Of a stretch of 64,000 nucleotides of DNA, positions 45,260 through 62,204 are shown one piece after another. How positions within the stretch are numbered: position 1 is the stretch's first letter; every line of letters begins with the position of its first letter. The notes beneath the pieces were generated by a model. The model did not search any database and had not been told where the DNA came from. It was given only the letters and a program-made list of their open reading frames with translations. This stretch comes from Escherichia coli (lineage in GTDB: Bacteria > Pseudomonadota > Gammaproteobacteria > Enterobacterales > Enterobacteriaceae), in assembly GCF_003790525.1 (NCBI RefSeq), contig NZ_CP033635.1, one strand, 5' to 3'. A program made the translations under genes and the position numbers.

Positions 45260-45340
45260 GAGATAACACCTTAAATAACAAATAAATGTGTGTTTTTCAG
45301 GAACGAAAGCTGAATGATTCCCTCACTCAGGGAAACGGCA

Positions 45341-46159
45341 TCAGCGCATGCTCTCCAGCAGCGTTTCTGCCATCACCCACAATGCGCGGTTGAGTTTTAT
45401 ATCGGTATCAATGCTGTGAATGGCCCGGGTATGGATACGTTTTCCTTTTGCACTGCGACCGGAAATCCCGCCTTTCAGCATATTCTCCTGGATGGTCTGA
45501 TAAGCACTCCACAGGTCCTTACCGTAATCCTCCCGGCGTCGTGGTGTCAGAATGTCGGCGGTGGTGACGGGCTGATGTTCGTCACCATAACGGTAAGTCA
45601 GTGCCGCCTGTGCCAGCGCCTGGCGTGCCGGTGGCGGCAGGACCAGCGACTGCATGGCATCACGCTTCTCCTCTATCCGGTCAAACACGCCCACCACCTC
45701 GTAAGCCCCTTCAATGACTCTGTCCACCACATTTCCCCGGTGCGGAACACGCACTTCCCCCAGAGACTGACCGCAGACGCATCCGTTCTGGCAGACGAAC
45801 CTGAAGTAACCCGGCAGCATCTGGTAGCTGGAGGTACCGTCATGGGAGTTCAGCAGGATGATTTCAGGGACATGTTGTCCGTTTATCTCCCCGTCACGGC
45901 GCAGACGCAGCATGTGTTTGGTATACCCCCGGCGGCCCGGGTCACGTACGCGGGTCTGGCAGGCGAAGAAGGGCTGAAAGCCTTCCCGCTGCAGGCTTTC
46001 CAGCACGGTGATGGTGGGGATGTATGTATAGTTCCGGCTCCGGGAGGTGTGTTTATCTTCCCCGAAAATCCCGGGCACATGGTGCATCAGCTCTTCACGG
46101 GTCAGCGGACGGTCACGGCGTATCTGGTTCGCATAACCAAAACGACTGGCTAATCGCAT
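45341..46159 (-). CDS. DUF932-family protein (YafZ/YfjQ-like)
   Basis: 272-aa ORF co-directional with the island operon; family from memory. Confidence 0.6.
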   Translation of the reverse strand: MRLASRFGYANQIRRDRPLTREELMHHVPGIFGEDKHTSRSRNYTYIPTITVLESLQREGFQPFFACQTRVRDPGRRGYTKHMLRLRRDGEINGQHVPEIILLNSHDGTSSYQMLPGYFRFVCQNGCVCGQSLGEVRVPHRGNVVDRVIEGAYEVVGVFDRIEEKRDAMQSLVLPPPARQALAQAALTYRYGDEHQPVTTADILTPRRREDYGKDLWSAYQTIQENMLKGGISGRSAKGKRIHTRAIHSIDTDIKLNRALWVMAETLLESMR

Positions 46160-46202
46160 ACTTTGCTCCTTATCAGTGGTTAAGACTGAATGACGTAATC
46201 AA

Positions 46203-46239
46203 TGAAAAAGCCGCGTCTCACGGAGAAGACGCGGCCTGA
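46203..46239 (-). terminator. Rho-independent terminator downstream of the GTPase gene
   Basis: gccgcgtct/agacgcggc hairpin followed by a T-run on the minus strand. Confidence 0.6.
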
Positions 46240-46344
46240 TGGATGAAATGAATGAGGGTTTACCGAAGCCCTTCAGCATTGTGGTGACGCAACCGGAAAT
46301 GCGTTTCCTGGTTATCGCCGGGGCCGGTCAAAAAGCGGGGACAT

Positions 46345-47229
46345 TCAGAACAGGCGATCCCACAGTGTGATCAGCAGGCGGATAATGCGATCACGGGCTT
46401 TGCGCAGAAGCTGCAGCATCCAGGCCGGAAAGCTGAACCGGGCAATGGCAGCGTCAAAACTCTGGCCGATGGCGTCACCAAAAGCCTGCTGTGCGTGTTG
46501 CTGATCCTGCGCAGTGCGCTTTTCATTCCGGATATGCGAATAAACCGCGCTGGTTGCCTGTGGTGGCAGGGCGTGGATCATCAGAGACACAAATGCCGGA
46601 AGATTCCAGCCGGCAGGAGCGGCTATGGGGAGTACCGGAAATGATGAAGGGAACAGGGTTGCCACCCGGGCTGTCACCGTCGCCAGTGAGAGTTCCTGCT
46701 GACGGGATGGCGTGCTGCTCTGGTTGTTCCATTCTTCAGCCGGGTGGATGCGATCGGCATGGCTGAGAACAAACAGAAAACGCGAGGGATCGGCACCTTC
46801 ATTCAGTAAAAACTGATGCATGGCGATGTCGGCAGCATACGCACGTTCATCAGCCCGCAGGATCCAGATAATCAGATCCAGTTCGGGCAGTAACTGACTG
46901 TAAAGTGCCCGGTATTCCTGATCATGCTGTGGTGTTTCGCCAGTGCCGGGCAGATCGACCAGCGTCATTCTTCGTTCACCGGGCTGAAAGGTAAGACGAT
47001 GAGCCTGACGGGTGCAGCCGTTCAGCGGATGCGTGGCGCAGACACGGGACTGAAAAATGGCATTGCACAGGCTGCTTTTTCCGGCACCGGATTTACCCAT
47101 AATGCCAATAACGGGTTCGTACTGAATGACGCTGCGAAGATGTTCAAGGATTTTCTGGCGAATTTCTTCAGGAAGAAAGGTCAGATGTGACTTTACGTGT
47201 GCGGAGAGGGAAGAATGGCTGAATGACAT
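46345..47229 (-). CDS. YeeP/YkfA/YfjP-family GTPase
   Basis: 294 aa with P-loop GIMGKSGAGKSS and DLPG switch motif; first gene of the minus-strand CP4-like operon. Confidence 0.8.
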   Translation of the reverse strand: MSFSHSSLSAHVKSHLTFLPEEIRQKILEHLRSVIQYEPVIGIMGKSGAGKSSLCNAIFQSRVCATHPLNGCTRQAHRLTFQPGERRMTLVDLPGTGETPQHDQEYRALYSQLLPELDLIIWILRADERAYAADIAMHQFLLNEGADPSRFLFVLSHADRIHPAEEWNNQSSTPSRQQELSLATVTARVATLFPSSFPVLPIAAPAGWNLPAFVSLMIHALPPQATSAVYSHIRNEKRTAQDQQHAQQAFGDAIGQSFDAAIARFSFPAWMLQLLRKARDRIIRLLITLWDRLF

Positions 47230-47329
47230 ACCGTTATCCTGTTGATTTCACTGAACCGGATCACATTAATCCGGCCTCTCAGTCAGGTAATATGGACGTG
47301 AAAATTTTTCCATTGACGGGAAGAAGAGT

Positions 47330-48553
47330 ATGGCTAAAAACAAAGGTATCTGTCGGAATAAAAAATGCAGCAATCCTGTTTCAGAATTTGATGAGGCAAA
47401 TGCCCTGAGGTTATGTGATGATCATTATCAGTTATGGAAACGAAATAAAGAGAACCGTCGGGTCAGGAATATTTGTCGTATAATCAGTAAATATGACAAA
47501 AGTCTGGACCGGGAGATATTTGACAGAGTAATAGATGCTGCAAGAAATCAAACGGGAAAGAGAATTGTTGAGGACGCAAAAATATTACATCAATTGCGCA
47601 ATTCAAAGCAAGTAAGAAAAAGTCTTCATAATGGAGTACTCCGGTCACGGGAATGGCTCAATACACAGGAGTTACTGAGAAGAAAAAATATATCTGTTAC
47701 AGGTGACTCATTTAAATCTTACATAAAGGATATTGTCAGATTATATTGCTATAAGTTTCTCTACAGCAGAGAATATCTTAATGAAAACGCATACAAAAAA
47801 CAATATCAGAGAGTTATTAACCCCAGAGAATTTAATGTTCCGATACTTCAACTTGAAGTTGCATGGATCAATAATAATTGCCGTTCAAGTGATTCAAGCT
47901 CTGATATTATCATCCTTCCCAGGATGATAAGAAGAATGGTTGTATTTAATGATACGAAGATAAATAAACAATTAGAGGAAATGTTGGGGGGGATAGCACG
48001 AAAAAAAGTCGCAGTAAGGAATAAAGGCGGTCTCTATACCAGAATAAAAAAAGAAAATGATTTTCGTTCTATGGATAGATTTATGGTGGAAATCGAAAAT
48101 ATCATAAGGCCTGAAATATTTCCGACATCAATTTACCCGCCTTTTTCACTTTCATTTATCGAGAGAGAATTGCCACTACTGAATCTGGCGCACTCACAGT
48201 ACAAAAGAGCAATAAGTAAAAAAGTGGCGAATTCAATTTTTTATACTTTGCGAAAAACTCACGTGGCATTATGGCTGCATCTTGAAATGTTTGCTCTTGT
48301 GGCATTCATCAAACTGTATACAGGAAAAGGGTTTGAATTCATGAAAAACATGTGTGTATTTATAGATTATGATAAAGGGATAATAAAATCCACGCATGAA
48401 GAACTGCTGAGTGAAATTAAGTGTAACATTCAGTTGAATTTAAAGGTGAATCCTGATAATTTTCCTGAATTAATAGAAGTATACAATTCATGCTTTAGTA
48501 AAAATATATTGTTGTATGATGTTCAGGATGATGGTTTTAAATGGTGTTTATGA
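47330..48553 (+). CDS. orphan AT-rich hypothetical protein (407 aa), Lys/Arg-rich, N-terminal C-x4-C...C-x2-H motif
   Basis: single long ORF in a visibly AT-rich tract, divergent from the GTPase gene; no recognised family. Confidence 0.6.
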   Translation: MAKNKGICRNKKCSNPVSEFDEANALRLCDDHYQLWKRNKENRRVRNICRIISKYDKSLDREIFDRVIDAARNQTGKRIVEDAKILHQLRNSKQVRKSLHNGVLRSREWLNTQELLRRKNISVTGDSFKSYIKDIVRLYCYKFLYSREYLNENAYKKQYQRVINPREFNVPILQLEVAWINNNCRSSDSSSDIIILPRMIRRMVVFNDTKINKQLEEMLGGIARKKVAVRNKGGLYTRIKKENDFRSMDRFMVEIENIIRPEIFPTSIYPPFSLSFIERELPLLNLAHSQYKRAISKKVANSIFYTLRKTHVALWLHLEMFALVAFIKLYTGKGFEFMKNMCVFIDYDKGIIKSTHEELLSEIKCNIQLNLKVNPDNFPELIEVYNSCFSKNILLYDVQDDGFKWCL

Positions 48554-50092
48554 TGTGAAAATATTAAATTTATATTACATTTTAATTATCGACAAAAAAC
48601 ACATAAAGAAATCTAAAGGGAATGAGCGTCAAATGAGCTGATATAGCGCCAGTTTGGTATGGTCATGTGATTTGATGATTAAAGCTTACGAATAATAACA
48701 CTCCTCTGTGAGCCATATAAATGAGCATGCCATAATCGTCAGTTCAGAGATAAAACTGACTGAATGATCTTATGTTATAGTAAGCAGTGTTTACCGGATA
48801 CGATGACTTATCTCTCTCACATCATATGGATTCACTTTCATGGGGTAAAGCGATGGGACTACAGACGCTGATTATGATGGTTTGCTGTAAAGTTAGCACA
48901 AGTTTTTGCTGTACAGAATACGGAGTAAGAAAAATAATTCCAGAGTAAATCTGCTCTGCTTTTGAACAGAAAAGATTCATGCTTACCGTGAAAAACTGAA
49001 ACCAACATTCAGTCTGCATGGATGTCTTAAGATGTTGAGAATGTCGGATATGGTATTATATACACCTTTTCCATTAGGTCCTTTTATGTTTTCATTAAGT
49101 CGTTTTGTATGTATTCCTCCAGTGATTCATTAGTGCCTGTTTACGCATTTACACACTTTCCCATTAATCTCCTTTAAATGTGTTTCATTACGCATTGCTG
49201 TACACATTTTTGAACTGATACACATCCAAGTTAGTAAACCTGTCAGTTCTGATTTTACGTTAACTAAATCAGTTTAATGCTGCTGTAAAACAATCCTTCC
49301 TGTTTAAGCAATCAATCTGCTATTCGATTTTACTGATGTGACGTTTAACCTTTCCTGAGCTTTGGTTGTTTGTGGTTTTTGGTTTGTGTTTCGACGTTAA
49401 GCTGAGAAAAGTATCTTTACGCTAAATCAACCCGAACTTTCCTGAGGTGATCTGACGTTCTTTTCGATGTGCTTACGACGATTCTGTTAAACGACTTTCT
49501 GGATGTTTTGATAACAATCAGATTGAGGCATTAACGATTCCTGACGTTTTGCTTTTTCATGTAAGGTCATTGTTTTCGTCATGATGTGGTTTTTCTTCTT
49601 GCATTGCGAAAGTGTGATGATTGGTTTTGGTTTTTTGATTCAGATGAGATTTACGTTATCGATGGTTAATCGTTTTTATGGTGCGTAGTGAAACGTAACA
49701 TTTTCGGGATGAGAAAATCGATTCTGATGGTGATGGGGATGATCGTGTTACGGCGTTATCTGTAAACAGGTTTTAAACGTGTCATTCGCATTCGTGATTG
49801 AGTTGTGTGATTAAGCTGTAGGTTTTGGCGTTGTTGTTGATTTGCATTGCCAGGAAGCGTTCTGGTTGCGTTTCTGGTGTTTTGTTCGAATGTTCTGTGG
49901 ATCCTTTTCCCTTCAGGCTTTTCTCGTCGTCCATGTCGTTTTTAAATCCATTCATGCTGTTGTTGCGTGTTTTGCTGCTGTGTGCAGGATTATCTTTTCG
50001 TTCCGGGATGGTTTGTTCCGTTTCAATCACTCTTAATCAGAGAGTTGTAGCATTGCTTAATGGCATGATGCCGTAAAGTTTTACCGCGGTGA

Positions 50093-50128
50093 TTAATGAT
50101 GTGAAGTCAATCCAAATCAACGGAGATC
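50093..50128 (+). promoter_or_regulatory. conserved leader motif upstream of yagK-like gene 1
   Basis: ttaatgatgtgaagtcaatccaaatcaacggagatc includes GGAG 8 nt before ATG 50136; repeated at 51034-51065. Confidence 0.4.
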
Positions 50129-50135
50129 TCTCATC

Positions 50136-50867
50136 ATGAATCAACCAATACACAATGCTTACTGGTTATCCCGTTTTGACAGCCTTCTCGACAGTGCCCT
50201 GTCGCAGCACCGTGCCGTCTCGTTAATCCGGGTGGATTTACGTTTCCCTGAGTATATGCCTGTCACCATCATGGATCCCGATCCGGATTCAGCGGTGATT
50301 TCTCGTTTTTTCGAATCCCTGAAAGCCAAAATCCAGGCTTACCAGCGGAAAAAACGACGTGCCAACAAGCGTGTGCGTGCAACCACTCTGCGTTATTTCT
50401 GGTGTCGGGAGTTTGGCAAGGAAAAAGGCAGGAAACATTATCACGTGATATTGCTGCTCAACAAAGATACCTGGTGCTCGCCAGGGGATTTCAGCGAACC
50501 ATCTTCGCTGGCGACGATGATCCTGGAGGCATGGTGCAGCGCCCTGCATCTTGAGGCCTGGCAAGGCGATGGCCTGGTCCATTTTTCCAGGTGGACGCCT
50601 TCCCGTAAACCAGCATCGTCTGATGCTCGCCCTTCTTCCGATGACACGCCTTTGTCGGGTGGATGTTCTGATACCAGGAAGGCTTCAGAAAAAAAGCCGG
50701 GTGAAGCCGCTGTTCTCTGGATCAAGCGTGGTGATGTGGAAGCGCTGCAGAAAGCCCGGAACAGAGCCAGTTATCTCGTGAAATATGAGACGAAGCAGCA
50801 TGACGGTTCCGGGCAACGTAATTATGGTTGCAGTCGTGGGCCGGGGCGTCTGCTGGATGGCAGGTGA
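50136..50867 (+). CDS. YagK/YfjJ-family (inovirus Gp2-like) island protein
   Basis: 243-aa ORF with family-typical basic stretch and VDLRFP-like block; family from memory. Confidence 0.65.
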   Translation: MNQPIHNAYWLSRFDSLLDSALSQHRAVSLIRVDLRFPEYMPVTIMDPDPDSAVISRFFESLKAKIQAYQRKKRRANKRVRATTLRYFWCREFGKEKGRKHYHVILLLNKDTWCSPGDFSEPSSLATMILEAWCSALHLEAWQGDGLVHFSRWTPSRKPASSDARPSSDDTPLSGGCSDTRKASEKKPGEAAVLWIKRGDVEALQKARNRASYLVKYETKQHDGSGQRNYGCSRGPGRLLDGR

Positions 50868-51033
50868 GCCCTGTAAAACGACATCCGGTGCCTGAGCTTA
50901 TGCTACAGGACGTTGGCTGACGCCCTTAGCTCGTTTTCTGAAAAAGTCGTCCTGAAGTCATGCAACGGTATTTTTCTCTGCTTTCGCTCCTGGAAACACT
51001 CCGTCGGTAAAACCTTACTGTCCTGCTTAATGA

Positions 51034-51065
51034 TGTGAACCGAAGTCAACGGAGATCATTCATTC
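51034..51065 (+). promoter_or_regulatory. second copy of the conserved leader motif
   Basis: cttaatgatgtgaaccgaagtcaacggagatc; the equivalent start position reads CTG followed by an early stop. Confidence 0.4.
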
Positions 51066-51211
51066 TGAACCTGCATCCGGTGTTCTTTCCCTTATCTTCC
51101 CGTTCTGCTTCGGTTCTTCACTTATTCCATCAATCTCATTCGTAAACCATAACACGTCAGCTCATTCACGGGCAGGACGCGTTGTGGGCTGCGCATAACG
51201 GAGCATATCTT

Positions 51212-51784
51212 ATGAATGCTATCCCTTATTTCGACTATAGCCTGGCCCCCTTCTGGCCATCTTATCAGAGCAAAGTTATCGGTGTCCTTGAGCGTGCGCT
51301 GCGTGAGCAGTCCGGCTCCAGGATACGGCGGATCCTGCTTCGTCTGCCGTGTGAATATGACAGTACCTTCAGCAGCAGAAAGACCTGGTTTGGTATGGAT
51401 TTTATCGAAACCGTCAGTGCGCTGATGAATGCAACCCCCGGACGCGACCTCTGCTGGCTCCTGACACGTCATCCTGAAAAACCGGAATACCACGTGGTGC
51501 TGTGCGTCAGACAGGAATATTTCGACGGCCCTGAGCTGGACCGGTTGATTCTGGATGCCTGGAGCAACGTACTGGGCTTCGCGGCACCGGGTGAAGCAGC
51601 ACCGTACCAGAAACAGATAACCCGGGATGTGGTGCTGGACAGTTGTTCACCGGACTGCGAAGAGAGACTCAAAGAGCTGATCTGGGCGTTCAGTGATTTC
51701 GCCCGCGATCGTCGTGGTGTGCGCGATCCGGAAGCCCGTTACCTCGCCGGTAATCCCTGGTATCCCGTAGCAGGCCAGCTCTGA
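51212..51784 (+). CDS. YagK/YfjJ-family paralog, N-terminally degenerate (possible pseudogene)
   Basis: ORF 51182-51784 shares family features (ILLRLPCEYD, HYHVVL); ancestral start region is disrupted. Confidence 0.5.
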   Translation: MNAIPYFDYSLAPFWPSYQSKVIGVLERALREQSGSRIRRILLRLPCEYDSTFSSRKTWFGMDFIETVSALMNATPGRDLCWLLTRHPEKPEYHVVLCVRQEYFDGPELDRLILDAWSNVLGFAAPGEAAPYQKQITRDVVLDSCSPDCEERLKELIWAFSDFARDRRGVRDPEARYLAGNPWYPVAGQL

Positions 51785-51852
51785 AAGCTCAGCTCAGCAG
51801 ATTCTCCCGCATTTGCCCAACATTCATAAATCTCACAGAGGACATTCTGACC

Positions 51853-52089
51853 ATGTTGACCTCAATGACAGGTCACGACAGCGTATTGCTGCGTGCCGAC
51901 GATCCCCTGATCGACATGAACTACATCACCAGCTTCACTGGTATGACCGACAAATGGTTTTACAAGCTGATCAGTGAAGGCCATTTCCCTAAACCCATCA
52001 AACTGGGGCGCAGCAGCCGCTGGTACAAAAGTGAAGTGGAGCAGTGGATGCAGCAACGAATCGAGGCATCACGAGGGGCAGCAGCATGA
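51853..52089 (+). CDS. alpA: AlpA-family phage/island transcriptional regulator
   Basis: small HTH protein with FPKPIKLGRSSRWYKSEVEQWM motif; alternative start ATG 51916. Confidence 0.7.
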   Translation: MLTSMTGHDSVLLRADDPLIDMNYITSFTGMTDKWFYKLISEGHFPKPIKLGRSSRWYKSEVEQWMQQRIEASRGAAA

Positions 52090-52289
52090 AACGTGTTGTA
52101 ATGCCGGTACGCTGGCAATGTGCAAAATACCAGCGTTGGTATTGTGGAAATCAGCCCTGTCCCTGGTGCTGGCGACCTGCTGCCCCCGTCTGTCATTCCT
52201 CGTTCTTCGCTGTAACAGGCATCGTACCGGTCTCGGCGTGCTTTCCTGCGTACCGACACCGGTTCAGCAACATTCAAGGGGATCAAATC

Positions 52290-52838
52290 GTGCAAATAAC
52301 CGAAACCGTACTTTCAGAGCCGGTGGAAATCCGGCGTTTTATTCAGCAGGCGGTGGATCACTGGCCGCGTCTGCTGGCCGTCCACTTCACACTCCATTCG
52401 GCAGAAGGAAACATCAACGGACAACAGATTCATGCATTCTGTACTTCCTTTTACCGACAGGTGCACGAGCGTATTACTGAACGTAATCACACGGCCAGTC
52501 CAGCACCACCGGTGGTATTACGCTGGTTGCGGGAACAACATGGAGGAGCAACAATGCGATGCCTGTTGCTGCTCAGCCAGACGAGCATTTGCCATCCACG
52601 GGTCAGTGCCACGGTTGATGAAGAATGTTCGCAACGGGTGGATTTATTGCAACAGACATGGCGGGTGATAAGTGCTGACGGACAATGCCGGGTGGAAAGG
52701 TGTTTTCAGGCTGCCCGGGGTGATACATCCGGCCAGTATATTGCGTTAAAAACAGTTGCATTGTCTCTGGGGTTACCGGTTGTGACCGGTATTACCCATC
52801 GCCCGGTACAGCGCTGTACATTGATTACAGCTCAGTGA
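52290..52838 (+). CDS. hypothetical island protein (possible third YagK/YfjJ-like paralog)
   Basis: ORF 52044-52838; plausible GTG start at 52290 after AAGGGGA; the Cys-rich segment upstream looks non-coding. Confidence 0.4.
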   Translation: MQITETVLSEPVEIRRFIQQAVDHWPRLLAVHFTLHSAEGNINGQQIHAFCTSFYRQVHERITERNHTASPAPPVVLRWLREQHGGATMRCLLLLSQTSICHPRVSATVDEECSQRVDLLQQTWRVISADGQCRVERCFQAARGDTSGQYIALKTVALSLGLPVVTGITHRPVQRCTLITAQ

Positions 52839-52855
52839 ACAGCGCTGTTGTGCAG

Positions 52856-53200
52856 TCAACGAGGTTTTCTGTCTTTTCGTCGGTCATTCAGCATCATTAA
52901 ACGGGTCTCTGCCTCTTTCTGTTCCTGTGGTGTCACTTCCCCGCACGGCTGACCGTTCAGGTTGTAACGGGCGCCACCTGCTATTAACGCACGGTAATAG
53001 CGCGGAGACTGCACATAAGACGCCACTGCTGCATGTAATGTACCAGCGCCAAACGCCAGTTCTCGGATGGCGATATCCTGTATCAGGTCGTCAGGTATCC
53101 CCACTTTAAGTGGTTTTGTTTTTTCCCGGTTGAATGACTCAGGCCAGAGTTCCACAAGACGAATAATGCGCTTACGGTTTTTGCTCTGGCGTTTTGTCAT
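52856..53200 (-). CDS. ProQ/FinO-domain RNA chaperone-like protein
   Basis: 114 aa resembling the ProQ N-terminal FinO domain (KPLKVGI.DDL, SPRYYRAL, NLNGQPCGEVT). Confidence 0.7.
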   Translation of the reverse strand: MTKRQSKNRKRIIRLVELWPESFNREKTKPLKVGIPDDLIQDIAIRELAFGAGTLHAAVASYVQSPRYYRALIAGGARYNLNGQPCGEVTPQEQKEAETRLMMLNDRRKDRKPR

Positions 53201-53838
53201 GTCGCCACGGTGTTTTATCAGCAGGTTTCTGTTTATCGTTCAACTGTGGTATCTGGTCACCGGCCTTCATTTTGTATGCTGTGTCCGTTTTATCCTGCAG
53301 CGGCGTTGCCGGTGATTTACTGAAAATACCCTGCGGTTTACGGTTAATGGTCAGCGTTACCATCAGTATTGTTACCTCGTGCTGTCAATGGAAGTGGTAC
53401 CTCATCCGGTATCTGAAAATGTTTTCCGGTGGATGGCACAGCGAATGTCATGTAAGACATGCTGTTGCCGGTATTGTTCAGTACTGTGAGTTGTGAGCGT
53501 ATTCGTTATCAGACAGAGGGGCAGGGAACAAACGTCAGAGGTTAAGGATATCCGGGAACAAATGGCGTAAACGGACATCTCAGTGCCTGAGAAACAGTAC
53601 AGGTCAGGCCATCATGGCCTGCAAACAGAGCCCTGGCGACCCCGTGGCCGAAAACGAAACAATAACCCGCGCGCAGTGCGAGGAATCCGGATGTGAAGCA
53701 ATCAGCAGGTAATATTAATGGCAGGACCAGCAGGTTCTTTAAACAAACGAACATGCTGTAATTGATATTTTGCTTATTGTATTTTCTTTTTAGTTATTAA
53801 ATTAATTTATTTACGAAAAATTTTCTGCAGATACAGGA

Positions 53839-53867
53839 TGGGAATTCAGGGTGTCATCACGCCTTAT
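53839..53867. other. perfect palindrome gggtgtcatca-N7-tgatgacaccc downstream of the LacI-family gene
   Basis: 11-bp inverted repeat; terminator or operator candidate. Confidence 0.3.
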
Positions 53868-53958
53868 GATGACACCCTTCCCCTGGTTGTGGAAAACCGA
53901 AGGATATATCAGGTTCAGCAACAAAATCAGTGAGCTGAAAGATACCAGTCCCCCAGCT

Positions 53959-54978
53959 TCAGCAGCTTTCACGTAAACATAAACAGGGCTCAATGAATAT
54001 CTGATTGCTCCAGTTACCTTCTTTAATTCGTTCCAGCAAAACATTTCCTGCTTCCAGACCAATTTTCCTGTGAGGAACGGCCATTGTTGTTAATGATGGT
54101 TGGCAAACTTTGCTGACGTCACTGTCACCAAATCCTACTACGGCGAGCTCGTCTGGAACTTTGATCCGTCTTCGTTGACATTCATAGAGAACACCGCAGG
54201 CTAACTCATCTGACACACATACCAGGGCATCCAGTTCCGGCCATGCGAGCAAAAATTCCGGTAGTTGTGATGCTCCGGTGGAAAAAACAGGTGGCAGAGC
54301 AGCGTTAATAACACGGTTGGGAGACATATGATGGCGTAACATAGCTTTATACCATCCCTGTAAATGCTGCTGAAAGATCCACTGTTCCTGGTTAGCGCAT
54401 AGCAAACCGATATTCTGATAACCACGTTGTACCAGCATATCCGTCAGCTCGAACATTGCTGCAACATTATCAATACCAATGTTGATATCTATCGGATCAG
54501 TACGAATGGCACCGATTTCTATAACAGGAATCGAGGCATTTTTGAGCAAGTGACGCACGGTACTATTATGATCAACACTAAGCAAAATTGCTGCAGCGAT
54601 ATTAGAAGCCAGCAGGGTTTCCAGCAGTTTTTCTTCTTGTTCCAGACGATGGCGTGACTCAGCCAGGATTATTTGATACCCCGCTGGTTGTAGCACATGT
54701 TGCAGCCCGGCAAACATTTCCGTGCATCCCGCTTCAGCCAGGTTTGGCACGACCATTGCGATCGTGTGTGAAGATGCCGATGCCAGTGCGCTTGCAGTGA
54801 GGTTGGGCATATACCCTAATTCATTAACTGCGGCTTCAATCTTCTCCCTCAATTTATCTGAAACTTGTTCGGGAGTGCGTAACGCTCTGGATACAGTCAT
54901 TGTGCCAACTCCCGCGAGTTGCGCGACATCAGCAATAGTGACTTTACCTGTACTACGACGTTTTCGGGTTATTGCCAT
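53959..54978 (-). CDS. LacI/GalR-family transcriptional regulator
   Basis: 339 aa with N-terminal HTH (TIADVAQLAGVGTMTVSRAL) and periplasmic-binding-fold core; divergent from the PTS operon. Confidence 0.8.
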   Translation of the reverse strand: MAITRKRRSTGKVTIADVAQLAGVGTMTVSRALRTPEQVSDKLREKIEAAVNELGYMPNLTASALASASSHTIAMVVPNLAEAGCTEMFAGLQHVLQPAGYQIILAESRHRLEQEEKLLETLLASNIAAAILLSVDHNSTVRHLLKNASIPVIEIGAIRTDPIDINIGIDNVAAMFELTDMLVQRGYQNIGLLCANQEQWIFQQHLQGWYKAMLRHHMSPNRVINAALPPVFSTGASQLPEFLLAWPELDALVCVSDELACGVLYECQRRRIKVPDELAVVGFGDSDVSKVCQPSLTTMAVPHRKIGLEAGNVLLERIKEGNWSNQIFIEPCLCLRESC

Positions 54979-55229
54979 ACAAAATCCTGCTCAGCGACTA
55001 CATATGGAGATCTTTTATTACTTATCATCAACGGCTTCCTGCACTGCCAGTAGCAGAGTATACCTCTTAATATCTGCCATAAGTCTGGATTTAATCAGTG
55101 AAATCTATTTTGATAGCGCTATCACAAATTCGAACAATACCTCCTGATAGCGCTATCTTTGTGATATTGATCGCAGATATACCGTCGTTACTTGAATACA
55201 TTCTGGTCATATAAATAAGAAATTAGGGG

Positions 55230-55679
55230 GTGGGAGTGCTTAATATCTGGCTTTCTGATTCAACAATCGCATTACGAAAGAATGCCGCAACCTGGCAGCA
55301 GGCATTAGATATCTGTGCCAGACCGTTACTGGATGCAGAGATAATTACGACGGATTATCTCAGTGCGATAAAGACACAACATGAAAAACTGGGGCCTTAT
55401 TATGTCCTGGCACCCGGGCTGGCCATGCCGCATGCCCGACCAGAAGAAGGGGCAAAAGGATTAGGTTTATCATTATTAAAACTTGAAGAAGGTGTCAGTT
55501 TTCATACAGAGGAATTTGATCCTGTAGATGTTATCATTTTACTTGCCGCACCAGACAAACACAGTCATATCGAAATGATATCTGCACTGGCTGAGTTATT
55601 CTCCAGCGAAAAAGATTTACATGAATTGCATCAGGCTCGCAATGTGGAGGAAATAAAAAAGATAATTTCACGGTTCTGA
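55230..55679 (+). CDS. PTS EIIA component, ascorbate (UlaC/SgaA) type
   Basis: 149 aa with APGLAMPHARPEEG active-site region resembling UlaC. Confidence 0.8.
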   Translation: MGVLNIWLSDSTIALRKNAATWQQALDICARPLLDAEIITTDYLSAIKTQHEKLGPYYVLAPGLAMPHARPEEGAKGLGLSLLKLEEGVSFHTEEFDPVDVIILLAAPDKHSHIEMISALAELFSSEKDLHELHQARNVEEIKKIISRF

Positions 55680-55757
55680 TTACATTATAAATTCAGTCTT
55701 TTCACAACATTGCGCCGTTGCGTGATGGGACTTCTTCAACTTAAAATGGTGAATATA

Positions 55758-56030
55758 ATGAAAATTATGGCTATTTGTGGCTCAGGGCTTGGTAGTAGTT
55801 TTATGGTCGAAATGAATATTAAAAAAGTTCTGAAAAAAATGGATATAGAGGCGGAAGTGGAACATTCCGATCTCTCATCAGCAACGCCAGGGGCTGCCGA
55901 TTTATTTGTGATGGCCAAAGATATTGCTGCCAGTGCCAGCGTACCGGAAAGTCAGTTGGTGGTTATCAACAACATCATTGATATTAATGAACTCGAAACG
56001 CAACTGCGTAACTGGTTAGCAAAACAATAA
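55758..56030 (+). CDS. PTS EIIB component, ascorbate (UlaB) type
   Basis: 90 aa from MKIMAICGSGLGSSFM...; Cys-containing phosphorylation loop. Confidence 0.8.
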   Translation: MKIMAICGSGLGSSFMVEMNIKKVLKKMDIEAEVEHSDLSSATPGAADLFVMAKDIAASASVPESQLVVINNIIDINELETQLRNWLAKQ

Positions 56031-56052
56031 CCTTAATTGAAGCGAGGTGGAT

Positions 56053-57441
56053 ATGTTTATCCTTGAAACGCTGAATTTTGTTGTTGATATACTTAAAGTG
56101 CCCGCGATACTGGTCGGCTTGATTGCCTTAATTGGTCTGGTTGCCCAGAAAAAATCTTTTTCAGATGTTGTTAAAGGTACAATTAAAACTATTCTCGGCT
56201 TTATTGTACTGGGCGGTGGTGCCACTGTTTTGGTTGGTTCGTTAAATCCTCTTGGGAGTATGTTTGAACATGCCTTTAATATTCAGGGCATCATTCCGAA
56301 TAATGAGGCTATTGTTTCTATTGCGCTGGAAAAATATGGCGCATCGACGGCCCTTATTATGGCATTTGGTATGGTGGCGAATATTATTGTTGCCCGCTTT
56401 ACCCGCCTTAAATATATCTTCCTGACCGGACACCACACATTTTACATGGCCTGCATGATTGGTGTGATTCTGACAGTGGCTGGTTTTGAAGGTATATCAC
56501 TGGTCTTTACCGGTTCTCTTATTCTGGGACTTGTGATGGCATTTTTCCCGGCATTAGCACAACGCTATATGAAGCGTATTACGGGGAATGATGACATTGC
56601 TTTTGGTCACTTTGGCACTCTGGGATATGTACTTTCTGGCTGGATTGGCAGCGTGTGCGGTAAAGGTTCCCGCTCCACCGAAGAGATGAATTTGCCCAAA
56701 AATCTGAGCTTCCTGCGCGACAGTTCCATCTCTATTTCTCTTACGATGATGGTGATTTATCTGATCATGGCGATCAGTGCTGGTCGTGAGTTCGTTGAAA
56801 GCCAGTTCAGTGGTGGTCAAAACTACCTTGTCTACGCCATCATAATGGCCATCACCTTCGCTGCTGGTGTATTTATTATTCTGCAAGGCGTGCGTTTAAT
56901 CCTTGCTGAAATAGTTCCGGCATTTACCGGGTTTTCAGAAAAGCTGGTGCCGAATGCCCGTCCGGCCCTCGATTGCCCGGTTGTGTATCCGTATGCGCCA
57001 AACGCAGTGTTAGTTGGTTTCTTGTTTAGCTTTTTTGGCGGTCTGGTAGGGCTATTTTTGTTGGGACAGATGAAACTGGTGTTGATTCTTCCGGGTGTCG
57101 TTCCTCACTTTTTTACCGGGGCGGCTGCTGGCGTATTTGGTAACGCTACGGGGGGACGTCGTGGCGCAATGATTGGTGCTTTTGCGAATGGCTTATTGAT
57201 TACCTTCCTGCCAGTACTGTTATTGCCGGTTCTTGGGGCGATAGGCTTTGCTAATACGACCTTTTCCGATGCAGATTTTGGTGCTGTCGGCATCGTCCTC
57301 GGAAACCTGGCACGTTATCTCTCACCTTTTGCCATCACCGGACTTGTAGTAGCGCTATTTGTGCTGCTGGTTGCCTGGAACATTTTCGCCAGTAACAAAA
57401 TCGCTGCCAAAGCGCAGAAGAAGAGCGGAGCCAAATCATGA
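56053..57441 (+). CDS. PTS EIIC permease, ascorbate (UlaA/SgaT) family
   Basis: 463-aa polytopic membrane protein; ATG 56053 after GAGGTGG. Confidence 0.85.
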   Translation: MFILETLNFVVDILKVPAILVGLIALIGLVAQKKSFSDVVKGTIKTILGFIVLGGGATVLVGSLNPLGSMFEHAFNIQGIIPNNEAIVSIALEKYGASTALIMAFGMVANIIVARFTRLKYIFLTGHHTFYMACMIGVILTVAGFEGISLVFTGSLILGLVMAFFPALAQRYMKRITGNDDIAFGHFGTLGYVLSGWIGSVCGKGSRSTEEMNLPKNLSFLRDSSISISLTMMVIYLIMAISAGREFVESQFSGGQNYLVYAIIMAITFAAGVFIILQGVRLILAEIVPAFTGFSEKLVPNARPALDCPVVYPYAPNAVLVGFLFSFFGGLVGLFLLGQMKLVLILPGVVPHFFTGAAAGVFGNATGGRRGAMIGAFANGLLITFLPVLLLPVLGAIGFANTTFSDADFGAVGIVLGNLARYLSPFAITGLVVALFVLLVAWNIFASNKIAAKAQKKSGAKS

Positions 57442-58268
57442 ATGTTAAAGAATTGACTCAATTTGCACGGGATATACGTATCCAGACGCTTAAATCATTA
57501 ACTCATCTCGGCTTCGGTCATTATGGTGGCAGCATGTCGGTTGTGGAAACGCTGGCAGTGCTTTATGGCGCTGTAATGAAAATTGATCCTGCTGCTCCCG
57601 ACTGGCCTGAGCGTGACTATTTTATCCTGTCCAAAGGACATGCCGGACCTGCTCTCTACAGTACTCTGGCGCTGAAAGGCTACTTTCCACTGGAAGAATT
57701 AAGCACCTTAAATCAGAACGGAACCCGCTTACCAAGTCATCCGGATCGGCTAAAAACGTGTGGTGTTGATAGCACCACAGGATCGCTGGGGCAGGGGATA
57801 TCCATTGCCGGAGGGATGGCGCTGTCGCATAAACTGGCGGGGCGCAAGAATCGGGTTTTTTGTATTGTCGGCGATGGCGAACTTAATGAAGGCCAATGTT
57901 GGGAAGCTTTCCAGTTTATCGCGCATCATCGTTTGAATAACCTCACTGTGTTTGTGGACTGGAACAAACAGCAGCTTGATGGTCAACTGGATGAAATTAT
58001 TAATCCATTTGATTTGGAAGGAAAATTCCGGGCTTTCGGTTTTGATGTCGTGACAGTGAAGGGCGATGATATTGAGGGCTTGTTGAATGTAGTTAAACCT
58101 GTCCTGCCAGCTGAGGCCAGACCGAGAGTGGTCATTCTCGATAGCATTAAAGGGCAGGGGGTGCCGTGTCTCGAGCAACTCAGTAATTCTCATCACTTAC
58201 GCCTCACAGAAGAGATGAAGGGGACGCTAAACGAAACAATTCGCCAACTGGAGGATATGCATGATTAA
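57438..58268 (+). CDS. transketolase, N-terminal (ThDP-binding) subunit
   Basis: 276 aa with GDGE...NEGQ ThDP motif; start overlaps the EIIC stop. Confidence 0.85.
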   Translation: MNVKELTQFARDIRIQTLKSLTHLGFGHYGGSMSVVETLAVLYGAVMKIDPAAPDWPERDYFILSKGHAGPALYSTLALKGYFPLEELSTLNQNGTRLPSHPDRLKTCGVDSTTGSLGQGISIAGGMALSHKLAGRKNRVFCIVGDGELNEGQCWEAFQFIAHHRLNNLTVFVDWNKQQLDGQLDEIINPFDLEGKFRAFGFDVVTVKGDDIEGLLNVVKPVLPAEARPRVVILDSIKGQGVPCLEQLSNSHHLRLTEEMKGTLNETIRQLEDMHD

Positions 58269-59214
58269 TCTCGCACCGGCAGGACAAAAAGACAGCATTG
58301 AAATGCGCAAAGTTTATGCAGATTTTATCGCGCAACAGAGTAAAAACGTCAGTTCTGTCATTGCTCTTGAGGCTGATTTAATGAGTTCCATGGCAATGGA
58401 CAGCGTGGCGCAGGATTATCCAGATCACGTCATTAATTGCGGCATTATGGAAGCCAATGTTATCGGCACAGCTGCAGGGCTGGCCTTAACCGGGCGCAAG
58501 CCATTCGTGCATACCTTTACCGCATTTGCCAGTCGTCGCTGTTTTGATCAACTCTTTATGTCGCTTGATTACCAGGGCGCTAACGTCAAAGTTATAGCTT
58601 CTGATGCGGGTGTTGCTGCTTGCCACAATGGCGGAACACATATGTCATTTGAAGATATGGGAATTGTGCGCGGGCTGGCGCATTCGGTGGTGATGGAGAT
58701 GACAGATGCCGTAATGTTCAGCGATATCTTGCGTCAACTCGTTGCACTGGAAGGATTTTATTGGATTCGTACCATTCGGAAGCAAGCAGCGAGTATTTAC
58801 GCACCAGGTACAACCTTTACAATTGGCAAAGGGCAGGTATTACGTGAAGGTACGGATGTCACCTTAATTGCTAATGGCATTATGGTGGTGGAAGCCCTGG
58901 AGGCCGCACGTCAACTTGAGCTGGCTGGGGTAAGTGTAGCGGTGATTGATATGTTTACGCTCAAACCCGTTGATCGGATGTTAATTAAAAATTATGCCGA
59001 AAAAACAGGACGGATCGTAACATGTGAAAACCATAGTATTCATAATGGATTAGGTTCAGCAGTTGCTGAAGTGCTTGTAGAAACTTGTCCTGTGCCCATG
59101 CGTCGGGTGGGGGTTAAAGAGCGGTATGGCCAGGTTGGAACTCAGGACTTTTTACAGAGAGAGTACGGGTTAACCGCGCAAGATATTGTGGCGGCAGCCA
59201 GAGAGCTATTGTAA
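58261..59214 (+). CDS. transketolase, C-terminal (pyrimidine-binding) subunit
   Basis: 317 aa; overlaps and is co-transcribed with the N-terminal subunit gene. Confidence 0.85.
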   Translation: MINLAPAGQKDSIEMRKVYADFIAQQSKNVSSVIALEADLMSSMAMDSVAQDYPDHVINCGIMEANVIGTAAGLALTGRKPFVHTFTAFASRRCFDQLFMSLDYQGANVKVIASDAGVAACHNGGTHMSFEDMGIVRGLAHSVVMEMTDAVMFSDILRQLVALEGFYWIRTIRKQAASIYAPGTTFTIGKGQVLREGTDVTLIANGIMVVEALEAARQLELAGVSVAVIDMFTLKPVDRMLIKNYAEKTGRIVTCENHSIHNGLGSAVAEVLVETCPVPMRRVGVKERYGQVGTQDFLQREYGLTAQDIVAAARELL

Positions 59215-59304
59215 TTCATGGAGTTTGTTTACCATTCTGTTTTTCTTAAAAGTGAGTGTCTGTGCGGTCACTAAACTCGGTAATAAAGCAGTTCATTGCA
59301 GGAT

Positions 59305-60657
59305 AAGAAGCGTTTGGTTGGAGCCTGTTTAGGATTCTGTGTAAATGCCTTTTCTCAGAAGTGACCGTCCAGGCGGTCACCGAACTCGATAATAAAGCGG
59401 CTCATTGCCATTCGCCAGTCCTTCAACGGCATCGTCCATTTCTGGGACGCAGACTGGATTGCCAGCCACACCACTTTTTTCACCGAGTCGTCTGTCGGGA
59501 ACACTTTACGCTTTTTGATCGCATGGCGGATCACGCTGTTTAGCGACTCGATGGCATTCGTCGTATAGATCACTTTGCGGATGTCCGTTGGATAAGCGAA
59601 GAACGTGGCAAGATTCGGCCAGTTAGCCTGCCAGCTTCGGCTTATCTGAGGATAGCGACTGTCCCAGGCCGCAGCGAACGCTTCCAGTGCCTGCTGACCT
59701 GCCTCTTCCGTGGGAGCCTGATAAATCGCTTTCAGGTCGCGAGTGACGGCTTTGTAGTCCTTCCATGACACGAAGCGCAGGCTGTTGCGCACCATATGCA
59801 CGATGCATAACTGGATGCGGGCCTTCGGATATACTGTGTTGATGGCATCCGGGAAGCCTTTCAGGCCATCCACACAGGCGATGAGGATATCGTTCAGACC
59901 GCGGTTTTTCAGTTCAGTCAGCACATTGAGCCAGAACTTCGCCCCTTCATTTTCGGCCAGCCACATACCCAGCAGTTCTTTCTGACCTTCGATATTGATG
60001 CCCAGTGCCAGGAACACCGATTTGTTGATGACGCGACTGTCCTGCCGAACTTTCAGGACGATACAGTCAAGATAAACAATGGGGTAAACAGCATCCAGTG
60101 GTCTGTTTTGCCATTCTACAACCTGCTCCATCACGGCATCGGTGACCTTTGATATCAGTGCCGGTGAAACATCTGCGTCATACAGTTCTTTGAACGCAGT
60201 AGCTATCTCACGGGTGGTCATCCCTTTGGCATACAACGAGAGGATCTGGTTATCCATCCCGGTAATACGGGTCTGATTTTTCTTTACCAGTTGTGGTTCG
60301 AAGGTACCGTCACGATCGCGCGGAGTACGCAGTTCCAGTGGACCGTCGCCTGTGATAACGGTCTTTGTGTAATAACCGTTGCGGGAGTTAGCTCCTGGTC
60401 TGGACTGATTTTTCTCATACCCAAGATGGTGTGTCATCTCTGCATTGAGAGCGGCTTCAACGCTGAGCTTTTTCAGCAGCCGATCAAACTGACTGAGGTC
60501 TTCAGGGGTTTTGAGGTTTTTGGCCAGTTCGTTAGCCAGAGCCTGTAACTGTTTTTCGTCCATAAATTAACCTTCATTTGATGCTGGATTGAACATATCA
60601 AAATCAGGCAATTACACAAATCTATGTACAGGCTCTTTGGTTGTGTCGTTTTACCGT
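59305..60657 (-). mobile_element. IS256-family insertion sequence
   Basis: transposase gene flanked by imperfect inverted ends (...ttggttggagcctgt... at 59310-59350 against ...acaggctctttggttgtg... at 60620-60650); about 1.35 kb. Confidence 0.6.
59355..60563 (-). CDS. IS256-family (mutator-type) transposase
   Basis: 402-aa ORF with IS256-family hallmarks including C-terminal motifs (YTTNAIESLN). Confidence 0.85.
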   Translation of the reverse strand: MDEKQLQALANELAKNLKTPEDLSQFDRLLKKLSVEAALNAEMTHHLGYEKNQSRPGANSRNGYYTKTVITGDGPLELRTPRDRDGTFEPQLVKKNQTRITGMDNQILSLYAKGMTTREIATAFKELYDADVSPALISKVTDAVMEQVVEWQNRPLDAVYPIVYLDCIVLKVRQDSRVINKSVFLALGINIEGQKELLGMWLAENEGAKFWLNVLTELKNRGLNDILIACVDGLKGFPDAINTVYPKARIQLCIVHMVRNSLRFVSWKDYKAVTRDLKAIYQAPTEEAGQQALEAFAAAWDSRYPQISRSWQANWPNLATFFAYPTDIRKVIYTTNAIESLNSVIRHAIKKRKVFPTDDSVKKVVWLAIQSASQKWTMPLKDWRMAMSRFIIEFGDRLDGHF

Positions 60658-60748
60658 AAGAACCGACCGCCGTATGTAGCCATTAAGCCAGTATTGGTAA
60701 CGTAGGTGCCCACCTTTTCAATGTACTGCGCCCCAAATCTTGGACATC

Positions 60749-62087: not shown

Positions 62088-62204
62088 ACGCTCCTCAGTT
62101 ACAGATCTGGTGTCTAACTATTGGGGCGCACTTCATCAAACTGGTGGACGCCTGTTATGGAGCAAAAACATTATCCGCAGAACCCCGCAGATCATTTTCA
62201 AATG

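Follow-up and report, generated by a model that had tools for sequence, protein, structure and literature searches.

A frameshifted FinO/ProQ-domain gene and its flanking DNA in an Escherichia coli island

Does a short open reading frame (ORF) with a FinO/ProQ domain on an Escherichia coli island encode a free-standing RNA chaperone, and does the apparently non-coding DNA beside it encode the RNA on which such a protein would act? The question is raised by the window, a 64,000-nt stretch of E. coli DNA (contig NZ_CP033635.1), in which a 114-aa ORF (52856-53200, minus strand) adjoins about 750 bp that had been read as a possible locus for a cognate structured RNA. As the original prediction placed it, the ORF lies between a module with alpA and a YfjJ-like gene and a LacI-PTS-transketolase module, and the FinO-like gene to which it belongs is part of the island backbone, downstream of alpA and convergent with the YfjJ-like gene. 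The locus is probably an eroded mobile-element FinO-domain gene beside a recombination scar, and not an RNA locus.

The FinO/ProQ domain and the lesions in its gene

The domain assignment of the original prediction was borne out, and it withstood the test of the fold that the prediction had set for it. The 114-aa ORF, which starts with ATG, matches the Pfam ProQ/FINO family (PF04352) with E=3.4e-21 over residues 9-112 (model positions 5-107 of 109), and an intact ortholog from the genome EC11 matches the same model with E=3.9e-21. Among solved structures, the 114-aa sequence is most similar to the N-terminal domain of ProQ (5nb9, E=1.8e-10), followed by NMB1681, RocC, Lpp1663, and FinO (1dvo). 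The structural comparison was made with an AlphaFold model of the intact EC11 ortholog, in which the domain has a pLDDT of 82-90 and comprises helices at residues 57-72, 89-100, 106-117, 120-128, and 145-163 and strands at 131-133 and 139-142; residues 1-47 are predicted to be disordered. In a Foldseek search of the PDB with this model, the top 26 matches were all FinO-domain proteins (FinO 1dvo, RocC, NMB1681, Lpp1663; the structures matched include 3mw6 and 6s10), with target-normalised TM scores of up to 0.85 (RocC 7rgt), and the next match had E>1. As modelled, the intact ortholog has the FinO fold, with a helical core and a beta-hairpin, and the window ORF is by family assignment a FinO/ProQ RNA-binding domain, RNA binding itself being predicted.

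What did not hold is the reading of this ORF as a complete, small stand-alone gene. Intact homologs are 158-180 aa long, and the 114-aa ORF corresponds to the C-terminal two thirds of such a gene, from which a 55-residue N-terminal extension has been cut off. The whole gene occupies 52856-53363 (minus strand) and can be aligned over its full length to the 165-aa gene of EC11, which is intact, at 92.8% nucleotide identity. Its disrupted state is already known from RefSeq, where PGAP annotates the equivalent of 52856-53364 in the near-identical genomes TUM9803, LR-31, and 33F4 as a pseudogene, "ProQ/FINO family protein, frameshifted"; in some genomes the 114-aa forms are entered as ordinary proteins. 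The detached N-terminal extension is found in a 63-aa ORF (53172-53363, minus strand), which matches residues 1-55 of the intact homologs (MVTLTINRKPQ...TPWRH) and ends in eight out-of-frame codons. The gene is split by a 2-bp (AT) deletion at 53200-53201 (minus strand, reference position 163), just upstream of the ATG, where the window reads CGTGGCGACATG and the intact alleles read CGTGGCGACATATG; the deletion is seen against four intact alleles. Given this deletion and the PGAP flag, the window gene lacks an uninterrupted frame collinear with the full-length homologs. At the deletion site, 369 of 374 matching complete genomes carry the window allele at 99% identity or more, and the exact 63-aa product, which marks the deletion, occurs on at least 1000 public contigs. 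We considered whether ribosomes might be programmed to shift frame across the deletion and rejected this, since a slippery heptamer is not present in the required frame and the common allele described below would spread the gene over three frames. The gene has also been hit independently in the lineage of AR_0374, which has a separate 5-nt insertion (MINF_1D has the same insertion and a premature stop), and an intact 159-aa allele adjoins the same LacI-PTS cargo in APEC 102026.

A second site of damage is a homopolymer inside the FinO domain, at 53119-53124 (minus strand), which is A6 in the window. A7 was read directly in three other loci (L001, L002, and L003), and translation breaks there after codon 27. 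When the region around the tract was compared across 400 matching complete genomes, a single one (APEC IMT5155) matched the window exactly and the other 399 did so at 95-99% identity; the 11 listed among these all span 72 rather than 71 bases. These alignments indicate that 399 of the 400 genomes have a tract one base longer than the window and with it a second frameshift, confirmed as A7 in the three loci above, and that the A6 state with its open ORF is a rare one. The window keeps A6, and therefore its 114-codon ORF remains open.

An open ORF with a complete domain could also mean that the frameshift gave rise to a functional minimal FinO-domain protein, with translation beginning at the internal ATG (53200) and possibly coupled to the 63-codon ORF. 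Such a protein, devoid of the N-terminal extension, would recognise terminator hairpins in RNAs of the island or the host. Its size would be comparable to the approximately 120-140 aa of NMB1681 (Neisseria meningitidis) and Lpp1663 (Legionella pneumophila), which likewise have little beyond the domain; however, these two and RocC are encoded by intact chromosomal genes and have demonstrated RNA ligands, whereas the window ORF is a truncation product that is disrupted in nearly all carriers. The upstream 63-codon ORF stops 26 nt past the ATG, so that reinitiation is conceivable, yet no Shine-Dalgarno-like sequence was read before the ATG at 53200 and there is no promoter-like site within 1 kb. 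The AR_0374 lineage, although frameshifted separately, also retains an open 114-aa domain ORF, but the extra base in the A-tract destroys this ORF in the 399 genomes, and the exact 114-aa product is present on 19 public contigs, against the far larger count for the deletion marker. The residues themselves point both ways. K35, R58, R69, Y70, and R80 are RNA-contact residues of ProQ according to mutagenesis of that protein, and the equivalents of K35, R69, Y70, and R80 are kept in the window ORF, but that of R58, which is Arg in at least 90% of 53 homologs, is His. This change (R56H, R56 aligning with Arg58 of ProQ) and L22S, the replacement of a nearly invariant Leu by Ser, are the substitutions on the window branch that fall in columns conserved to at least 90%. 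Pairwise dN/dS values for the domain lie between 0.12 and 0.38 (about 0.2 overall), and the window branch has six non-synonymous and eight synonymous changes; judged from these values relaxation is not obvious, and most of the divergence may predate the frameshift. Taken together, we consider a working minimal protein unlikely.

A further reading would have slipped-strand changes in the length of the A-tract (A6/A7) switch the FinO-domain ORF on and off. The tract differs by one base between sequences that are otherwise 99.9% identical, and A6 occurs in two backgrounds about 1% apart (the window and IMT5155). A distribution of 1:399 is, however, far from balanced, six or seven A are short for efficient slippage, and assemblies also often err in homopolymer length; moreover, neither state restores the full protein, because the gene is already split upstream. 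A switch is hardly credible on these grounds, and a gene in decay remains the preferred explanation of the lesions.

Composition of the adjoining DNA and the search for a cognate RNA

The description of the adjoining DNA as about 750 bp without a credible ORF is correct insofar as no intact ORF with homolog support exists between 53201 and 53958, but the stretch contains former coding sequence, the stub of an ORF, and a fimbrial fragment, so that by homology more than half of it is gene debris. The first 163 bp (53201-53363) are the former N-terminal coding sequence of the FinO-like gene. A divergent intergenic region of 355 bp (53364-53717) follows, which belongs to the island backbone and separates the FinO-like gene (minus strand) from a 75-aa backbone ORF (plus strand). 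The region is carried by 776 genomes, is unannotated in the listed ones with near-full-length matches, and differs between lineages by indels of 30, 5, and 4 nt and, in one lineage, by a 219-nt deletion. Of the 75-aa ORF (WP_155522400-type), the first 12 codons are left (53718-53753, plus strand; 11 of 12 residues identical in tblastn); the full ORF is annotated in three other loci (L085, L087, and L004), and the homology of most islands to the window stops at 53751-53753. The 75-aa ORF has no similarity to Rpn nucleases, of which it was considered as a possible fragment, and searches of the neighbours with PHROG and NCBIfam gave no functional clue to the YfjJ-like and backbone ORFs beyond a weak replication-initiator similarity of a Gp2-family protein.

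The last segment (53749-53949, plus strand) is a degraded 5' fragment, approximately codons 3-78 and 200 bp, of an F4 family fimbrial subunit-like gene, identified by blastn (annotated chromosomal and plasmid genes at 70-86% identity) and tblastn (E=2e-13, two in-frame stops); the alignment contains deletions of 31 and 2 nt. The cargo module begins directly afterwards with the gene for a LacI-family regulator (53959-54978, minus strand), as annotated in a 99.9%-identical record. The published tkt1 island, which sits between metE and ysgA (PMC3349570), was considered as the window island and is a different one.

Of the two palindromes noted in this DNA, one lies in the same debris. The larger one is real, a perfect inverted repeat of 12 + 12 nt with a 7-nt loop, AGGGTGTCATCA-N7-TGATGACACCCT, but it lies at 53848-53878 and not at 53839-53867, that is, within the fimbrial fragment. 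It forms a very stable hairpin (fold z of -4.0 and -5.1), has no T-run after it on either strand, and is former coding sequence (...TITPYDD...) that is imperfect as a repeat in intact fimbrial homologs. The smaller palindrome, GGCCATCATGGCC, is present at 53607-53619, but it folds no better than shuffled sequence (z of +0.13 and -1.2) and is broken in homologous islands, by a 5-nt deletion in EC11 and by substitutions in RIVM_C019217. A further, imperfect hairpin of 17 bp (52808-52848; fold z of -2.6 on the plus and -3.7 on the minus strand) is located on the other side of the gene, between the convergent UCP030791/YfjJ-like gene, which ends at 52838, and the FinO-like gene, which ends at 52856; it has no U-tract and its arms are less complementary in other islands, and it is possibly a 3'-end structure shared by the two genes.

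Within the intergenic region, the 151 nt proximal to the ancestral start codon (53364-53514, minus strand) are better conserved than the rest: identity between lineages is 92-100% (96-100% without L003, three lineages being mutually 100% identical), compared with 84-87% in the middle segment (53515-53649) and 93-95% in the distal segment. Something is or was constrained here, most likely the 5' untranslated or promoter region of the FinO-like gene, and a GAGG upstream of the ancestral start is conserved. A 38-codon upstream ORF (53344-53460, minus strand) was rejected as a leader peptide, because a 4-nt deletion breaks its frame in EC11 although the main gene is intact there.

The same conservation could be taken as a sign that the region encodes the cognate RNA, as a FinP-like antisense RNA or a leader-derived small RNA, with the proximal 151 nt being the RNA or its target. 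Such an arrangement would have precedent, since characterised plasmid FinO-family proteins act on cis-encoded antisense RNAs (PMC9977716), and two structural features could be cited for it, namely an 81-nt sub-window of the proximal segment with a fold z of -3.2 on the minus strand and a weak hairpin at 53682-53666 (minus strand) that resembles a terminator and has a T-rich tail. In EC11, which has an intact gene, the main hairpin of the sub-window has, however, decayed with no compensating changes, and the hairpin region at 53640-53700 folds worse than shuffles (z=+2.2). In the folding screen, only the sub-window and the hairpin of the fimbrial fragment stood out, and neither is backed by conservation; the intergenic region as a whole has z scores of -1.9 and -1.4 on the two strands. 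Its homologs, at 84-100% identity, are too alike for a covariation test, and no compensatory changes were seen. The region also carries large indels in its middle, has lost 219 nt in one lineage, and has no homology around the satellite-borne paralogs described below.

Signals of transcription are equally scarce. Sigma-70-like promoter sites are absent from both strands of 53364-53958, against 2.1 expected, and terminator-like sites are at shuffle expectation (4 versus 2.2±1.5, and 11 versus 7.9 in a second scan), none of them paired with a promoter. A permissive Rfam 15 search gave no match at E≤1 within 45000-64000, and at gathering score nothing relevant was found in the window and seven satellite loci, the sole match being istR at 3602-3731. 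Searched against the rest of the island and window, the intergenic region showed no complementary or repeated stretch longer than 12 nt, and the E-values of the matches were those expected by chance. The proposal that the adjoining DNA is a cognate structured-RNA locus thus found no backing, and as far as these signals can be read, nothing in 53364-53958 points to such an RNA; we regard its presence as very unlikely, and the composition described above leaves the reading of an eroded gene beside a recombination scar as the better one.

Relatives on islands and satellite-like elements

The FinO-like gene is accessory, being carried by a minority of 5426 complete E. coli genomes, and all 1533 matching places are chromosomal, with none on plasmids. 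Intact relatives occur in tRNA-site islands and in small phage-satellite-like elements, where paralogs of 57-69% identity are found in IMG/VR contigs of 10-16 kb. Their surroundings are recurrent: in 78 satellite loci, a primase gene lies upstream in 71 and a gene for a single-stranded DNA-binding protein (SSB) in 38, and a PerC-like gene lies downstream in 55, each of them on the same strand; one satellite-like locus with the paralog also encodes a small terminase. In contrast, the window copy is convergent with the YfjJ-like gene and is accompanied by neither primase nor SSB. Nucleotide homology between the window gene and these paralogs begins at approximately 53358, and its flanks have no homology to the 78 loci in blastn or tblastx, by which the upstream DNA was also rejected as a degraded ssb or other satellite gene. 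When one satellite locus (L007) was mapped for coverage against the 77 others, the FinO-like gene proved to be the segment with the widest coverage, and no non-coding block conserved between loci lay close to it. Species-representative genomes were scanned with the family alignment as well, but none of the 177 pattern matches was confirmed, and because of this the range beyond E. coli and close relatives comes only from database names (Salmonella, Citrobacter, Shigella). No functional characterisation or RNA partner of the island- or satellite-borne genes was found in the searchable literature.

Among characterised proteins, FinO of IncF plasmids resembles this family in having an N-terminal extension before the domain and in being encoded on a mobile element. 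The EC11 model superposes on 1dvo with 1.9 Å over 102 columns at 29% identity, and in the NCBIfam FinO model residues 48-161 correspond to 58-171 of FinO. Against that model (NF010317), the window ORF nevertheless reaches 50.5 bits and the intact ortholog 57.1 bits, far below the cut-off of 136, the N-terminal extension is predicted to be disordered here whereas that of FinO is a long helix, and the family is chromosomal and island-borne, without a tra operon and with no FinP-like antisense RNA found; the window copy is in addition frameshifted. ProQ, despite providing the best sequence match among solved structures, differs as well: the score of 50.8 bits for NF003434 compares with an equivalog cut-off of 127, the domain of the family is C-terminal with nothing after it, in place of the linker and C-terminal Tudor-like domain of ProQ, the FinO-like gene is accessory, and the window copy has His at the R58 equivalent. 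FopA (YafB) of pCol1B9 (IncI) is another mobile-element FinO-domain protein, whose distinct N-terminal region has positively charged stretches and which has homologs on Escherichia chromosomes (PMC7491321). By description only, the window family is similar in that a basic stretch (KRQRKNRKR) precedes the domain; the RNA targeted by FopA, however, is the Inc antisense RNA of repZ, and the window has neither a plasmid replicon nor an Inc-like RNA.

Erosion of the window gene and its meaning for the family

With the identity of the domain, the lesions and their frequencies, and the origin of each segment in hand, the history of the locus may be sketched as follows. The ancestral protein would have had approximately 160-175 aa, with a disordered basic extension followed by a FinO domain that, by homology, would recognise terminator hairpins, the stem-loops at the 3' ends of RNAs, and it may have been an RNA chaperone for an RNA encoded by its own element. 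Its gene belongs to the backbone of CP4-type tRNA-site islands and is also found in small phage-satellite-like elements. In the window lineage, the 2-bp deletion parted the extension from the domain, after which nearly all carriers gained the second frameshift in the A-tract, with A6 retained in the window; the 114-codon ORF that this leaves open lacks an evident ribosome-binding site. At the join of the LacI-PTS-transketolase cargo, a truncated fimbrial subunit-like gene would have been left behind. In its present state, the FinO-like gene is presumably non-functional in the window.

For the window, the outcome is chiefly a correction, as what appeared to be a chaperone and its RNA partner is a decaying gene flanked by the debris of module shuffling. 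This agrees with the published view that FinO-like genes integrated into chromosomes "likely suffered erosion" (PMC9977716). The wider family is of modest interest, since FinO-domain genes are regular and well conserved in small satellite-like elements and in the backbones of E. coli islands. It is a speculative and unlikely idea that the intact relatives make up a clade of RNA chaperones, each with a FinO domain behind a disordered basic extension, that might act through an element-encoded RNA on the replication, immunity, or induction of satellites, and that the 114-aa domain of the A6 allele could still be produced and compete with host ProQ for terminator hairpins; the candidate settings of this clade would be the satellite replication operon (primase-SSB-FinO-like-PerC-like) and the alpA backbone of tRNA-site islands. 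The right entry point for work on RNA partners is provided by the intact alleles, such as those of EC11 and APEC 102026, and not by the window copy.

Identity and truncation of the FinO-like gene

The predicted 114-aa ORF is present on the minus strand (52856-53200), and its assignment to the FinO/ProQ family is borne out by a match to nearly the full Pfam model PF04352 (E=3.4e-21) and by phmmer matches to the solved structures of the ProQ N-terminal domain (1.8e-10), NMB1681, RocC, Lpp1663 and FinO. In the AlphaFold model of the intact ortholog from genome EC11, for which 53 sequences were used, the domain reaches a pLDDT of 82-90, and the best 26 PDB matches of this model are all FinO-domain structures, the next match having E>1. 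Rejection of the FinO/ProQ fold, which had been named as a refutation of the prediction, did not occur, and the FinO-domain identity, already known from public annotation, is correct. The protein is not orthologous to FinO or to ProQ: its scores of 50-57 bits fall below the curated cut-offs of 127-136, no Tudor domain is present and it is not plasmid-borne.

The ORF is a fragment of a larger gene. In TUM9803, LR-31 and 33F4, near-identical carriers of a frameshifted copy, PGAP annotates the 509 bp equivalent to 52856-53364 as one frameshifted pseudogene, and intact homologs of 165, 174, 158 and 159 aa are found in the genomes EC11, GTEN_23, RIVM_C019217 and APEC 102026, respectively, the last adjoining the same LacI-PTS cargo as in the window. 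The intact homologs have in common an N-terminal extension of ~55 residues (MVTLTINRKPxGIY ... TPWRHM), which is predicted by AlphaFold to be disordered. In the window, two bases are missing directly before the internal Met (CGACATATG to CGACATG), and therefore the extension now forms a separate 63-codon ORF (53172-53363) that is out of frame beyond the ATG. The stretch 53201-53363 was once coding sequence of the FinO-like gene, as confirmed by nucleotide homology to distant paralogs starting at about 53358.

Decay of the gene across the population

Of 374 complete genomes that match around the deletion, 369 carry the window allele at an identity of 99% or more. Within the domain, the A-tract at 53119-53124 has six adenines (A6) in the window and seven (A7) in TUM9803, LR-31 and 33F4, where A7 interrupts the domain ORF after codon 27. 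The A6 form is matched by one of 400 complete genomes (IMT5155); the remaining 399 fall into the 95-99% identity band and, among the matches listed, their span is one base longer. In a collection of 15 billion proteins, the exact 114-aa product occurs on 19 contigs and the 63-aa marker of the deletion on at least 1000. A separate lineage, represented by AR_0374, has an independent 5-nt insertion in the FinO-like gene, to which its relative MINF_1D adds a premature stop.

The branch leading to the window carries six non-synonymous and eight synonymous changes, among them L22S and R56H, the second of which aligns with ProQ Arg58; in 53 homologs, each of these two columns is conserved to 90% or more. 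Purifying selection acts on the intact gene, as family-wide dN/dS values of 0.12-0.38 show, but does not rescue the window copy. Inspection of the sequence before the ATG at 53200 revealed no Shine-Dalgarno-like sequence, and no sigma-70-like promoter was detected within 1 kb of it. The FinO-like gene in the window is eroded and probably non-functional; the main alternative, that the A6 allele with its open 114-aa frame still produces a residual minimal FinO-domain protein, is improbable.

The neighboring DNA and its hairpins

The original prediction described the ~750 bp up to 53958 as non-coding, yet a four-part dissection resolved them mostly into gene debris and an ordinary upstream region. 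The former coding sequence is followed by an island-backbone intergenic region (53364-53717, ~355 bp; unannotated among the near-full-length matches listed), the first 12 codons of a divergent 75-aa backbone ORF (53718-53753) and a degraded 5' fragment (53749-53949) of a gene that bears the label "F4 family fimbrial subunit" in other annotations, with the LacI gene ending at 53959. The fimbrial-like fragment (70-86% nucleotide identity, tblastn E=2e-13) contains 31-nt and 2-nt deletions and in-frame stops. Across 1208 genomes, homology breaks off near 53355 and 53514 and most frequently at 53751-53753. The intergenic region is carried by 776 genomes and, in islands consisting of the backbone alone, lies between the FinO-like gene and the divergent 75-aa ORF.

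Nothing points to a cognate RNA encoded beside the ORF, as had been suggested. Over 53364-53717, Rfam gave no match at E<=1 and none at the gathering score, terminator-like sites occur at chance level, the fold z-scores of the whole region are -1.9 and -1.4, and any complementarity with other parts of the window stays within chance. Lineages differ here by indels of 30, 5 and 4 nt and, in one case, a 219-nt deletion, and no counterpart was found beside satellite-borne paralogs. One sub-window of 81 nt reaches a fold z of -3.2, but in EC11, where the gene is intact, its main hairpin is disrupted and no compensatory change restores it, and identity is too high for covariation. A genuine feature is the conservation of the 151 nt adjoining the ancestral start codon (53364-53514): most lineages share 96-100% identity there, and three have the same sequence, whereas the middle segment shows 84-87% identity. 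This is most simply read as constraint on a promoter or 5' UTR of the FinO-like gene, or as recent recombination. In the variable middle, a 30-nt insertion (53515-53544) flanked by the repeat TTTGTTCCC is found in the window and 33F4, is missing from four other lineages, and looks like a slippage-type duplication.

The large palindrome exists, ~10 nt to the right of its predicted position, at 53848-53878, as a perfect 12-bp inverted repeat whose hairpin is highly stable, with z of -4.0 and -5.1. Within the fimbrial-like fragment, it occupies what used to be the codons for ...TITPYDD...; its counterpart in intact F4-like genes is imperfect and no T-run follows it, and it looks like a quasi-palindrome perfected by template switching after gene inactivation. 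Its left arm adjoins the 31-nt deletion, and about 140 genomes with the LacI-PTS cargo carry the repeat with 100% conservation. The small palindrome GGCCATCATGGCC (53607-53619) is likewise present, but is neither more stable than shuffled sequence nor conserved.

Another hairpin (52808-52848, 17 bp; z -2.6 and -3.7) straddles both convergent 3' ends, overlapping the YfjJ-like stop codon and lying 8 nt beyond the FinO-like one, and may be a bidirectional 3'-end structure of both. The two genes are always convergent in the island family, with a gap of 1-19 nt in most loci. A 1-nt deletion in the window, relative to other islands, strengthens this hairpin.

Island setting and the wider family

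Segment 52700-54100 matches the TUM9803 chromosome with 99.9% identity and one gap, and many avian and human extraintestinal strains, BEN2908 and IMT5155 among them, with ~99%; all 1533 matching places are chromosomal. From left to right, the TUM9803 annotation lists CbtA/YeeU toxin-antitoxin, antirestriction, DUF932 and GTPase genes (minus strand), a Gp2-family/YfjJ-like gene, a hypothetical gene, an AlpA-type HTH regulator (51853-52089) and a UCP030791/YagK-YfjJ-domain gene (52290-52838; all plus), the "ProQ/FINO family protein, frameshifted" and a LacI-family regulator (both minus), and PTS IIA/IIB/IIC genes with two transketolase subunits (plus). The flanking genes yicL and setC (38120-40338 and 40339-41100; 99% protein identity) place the island at the selC-side locus, and, judging from the 99% match to BEN2908, it may be of the AGI-3 type. 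No tRNA was detected by ARAGORN anywhere in the window, nor a tRNA-Sec by Rfam at the gathering score; selC may be situated beyond the window or have been lost.

Near the window start, a full-length istR sRNA (3602-3731; Rfam RF01400, 150 bits) marks the tisB/istR locus. Two copies of a ~65-nt leader (50073-50140 and 51007-51069, 76-77% identical) stand directly upstream of two YfjJ/Gp2-like paralogs (starts 50136 and about 51182) and may be a common regulatory element or leader RNA. One arm of a 22-nt inverted repeat (48702-48723/51821-51842, 82% complementary) covers the alpA ribosome-binding region (CATTCATAAATCTCACAGAGGA); the far arm lies ~3.1 kb upstream, next to a minus-strand promoter-like site, and may represent an oppositely oriented second alpA-type leader.

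Paralogs with 57-69% identity occur on 78 IMG/VR contigs, mostly of 10-16 kb, which are phage-satellite-like elements. Upstream lie a primase gene in 71 of the 78 and an SSB gene in 38, and downstream a PerC-like gene in 55, with all of these genes on one strand; a small terminase gene and repressor/antirepressor genes appear in two examples. Among these loci, no segment is shared more widely at the nucleotide level than the FinO-like gene, which recurs regularly in a primase-(SSB)-FinO-like-PerC-like operon (e.g., L007:1810-5812, in one such contig). Similar genes are mentioned in passing for E. coli 042 (PMC2808357) and Vibrio satellite-plasmids (PMC13230959), and no functional study of them was found in the literature searched. 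Characterized relatives carried by mobile elements act as helpers of antisense RNAs encoded in cis, which repress transfer or replication (PMC9977716, PMC7491321). By homology, the ancestral protein would have been a FinO-type RNA-binding protein recognizing stem-loops at RNA 3' ends, for which, speculatively, the hairpin across the FinO-like and YfjJ-like 3' ends would be a conceivable ligand.
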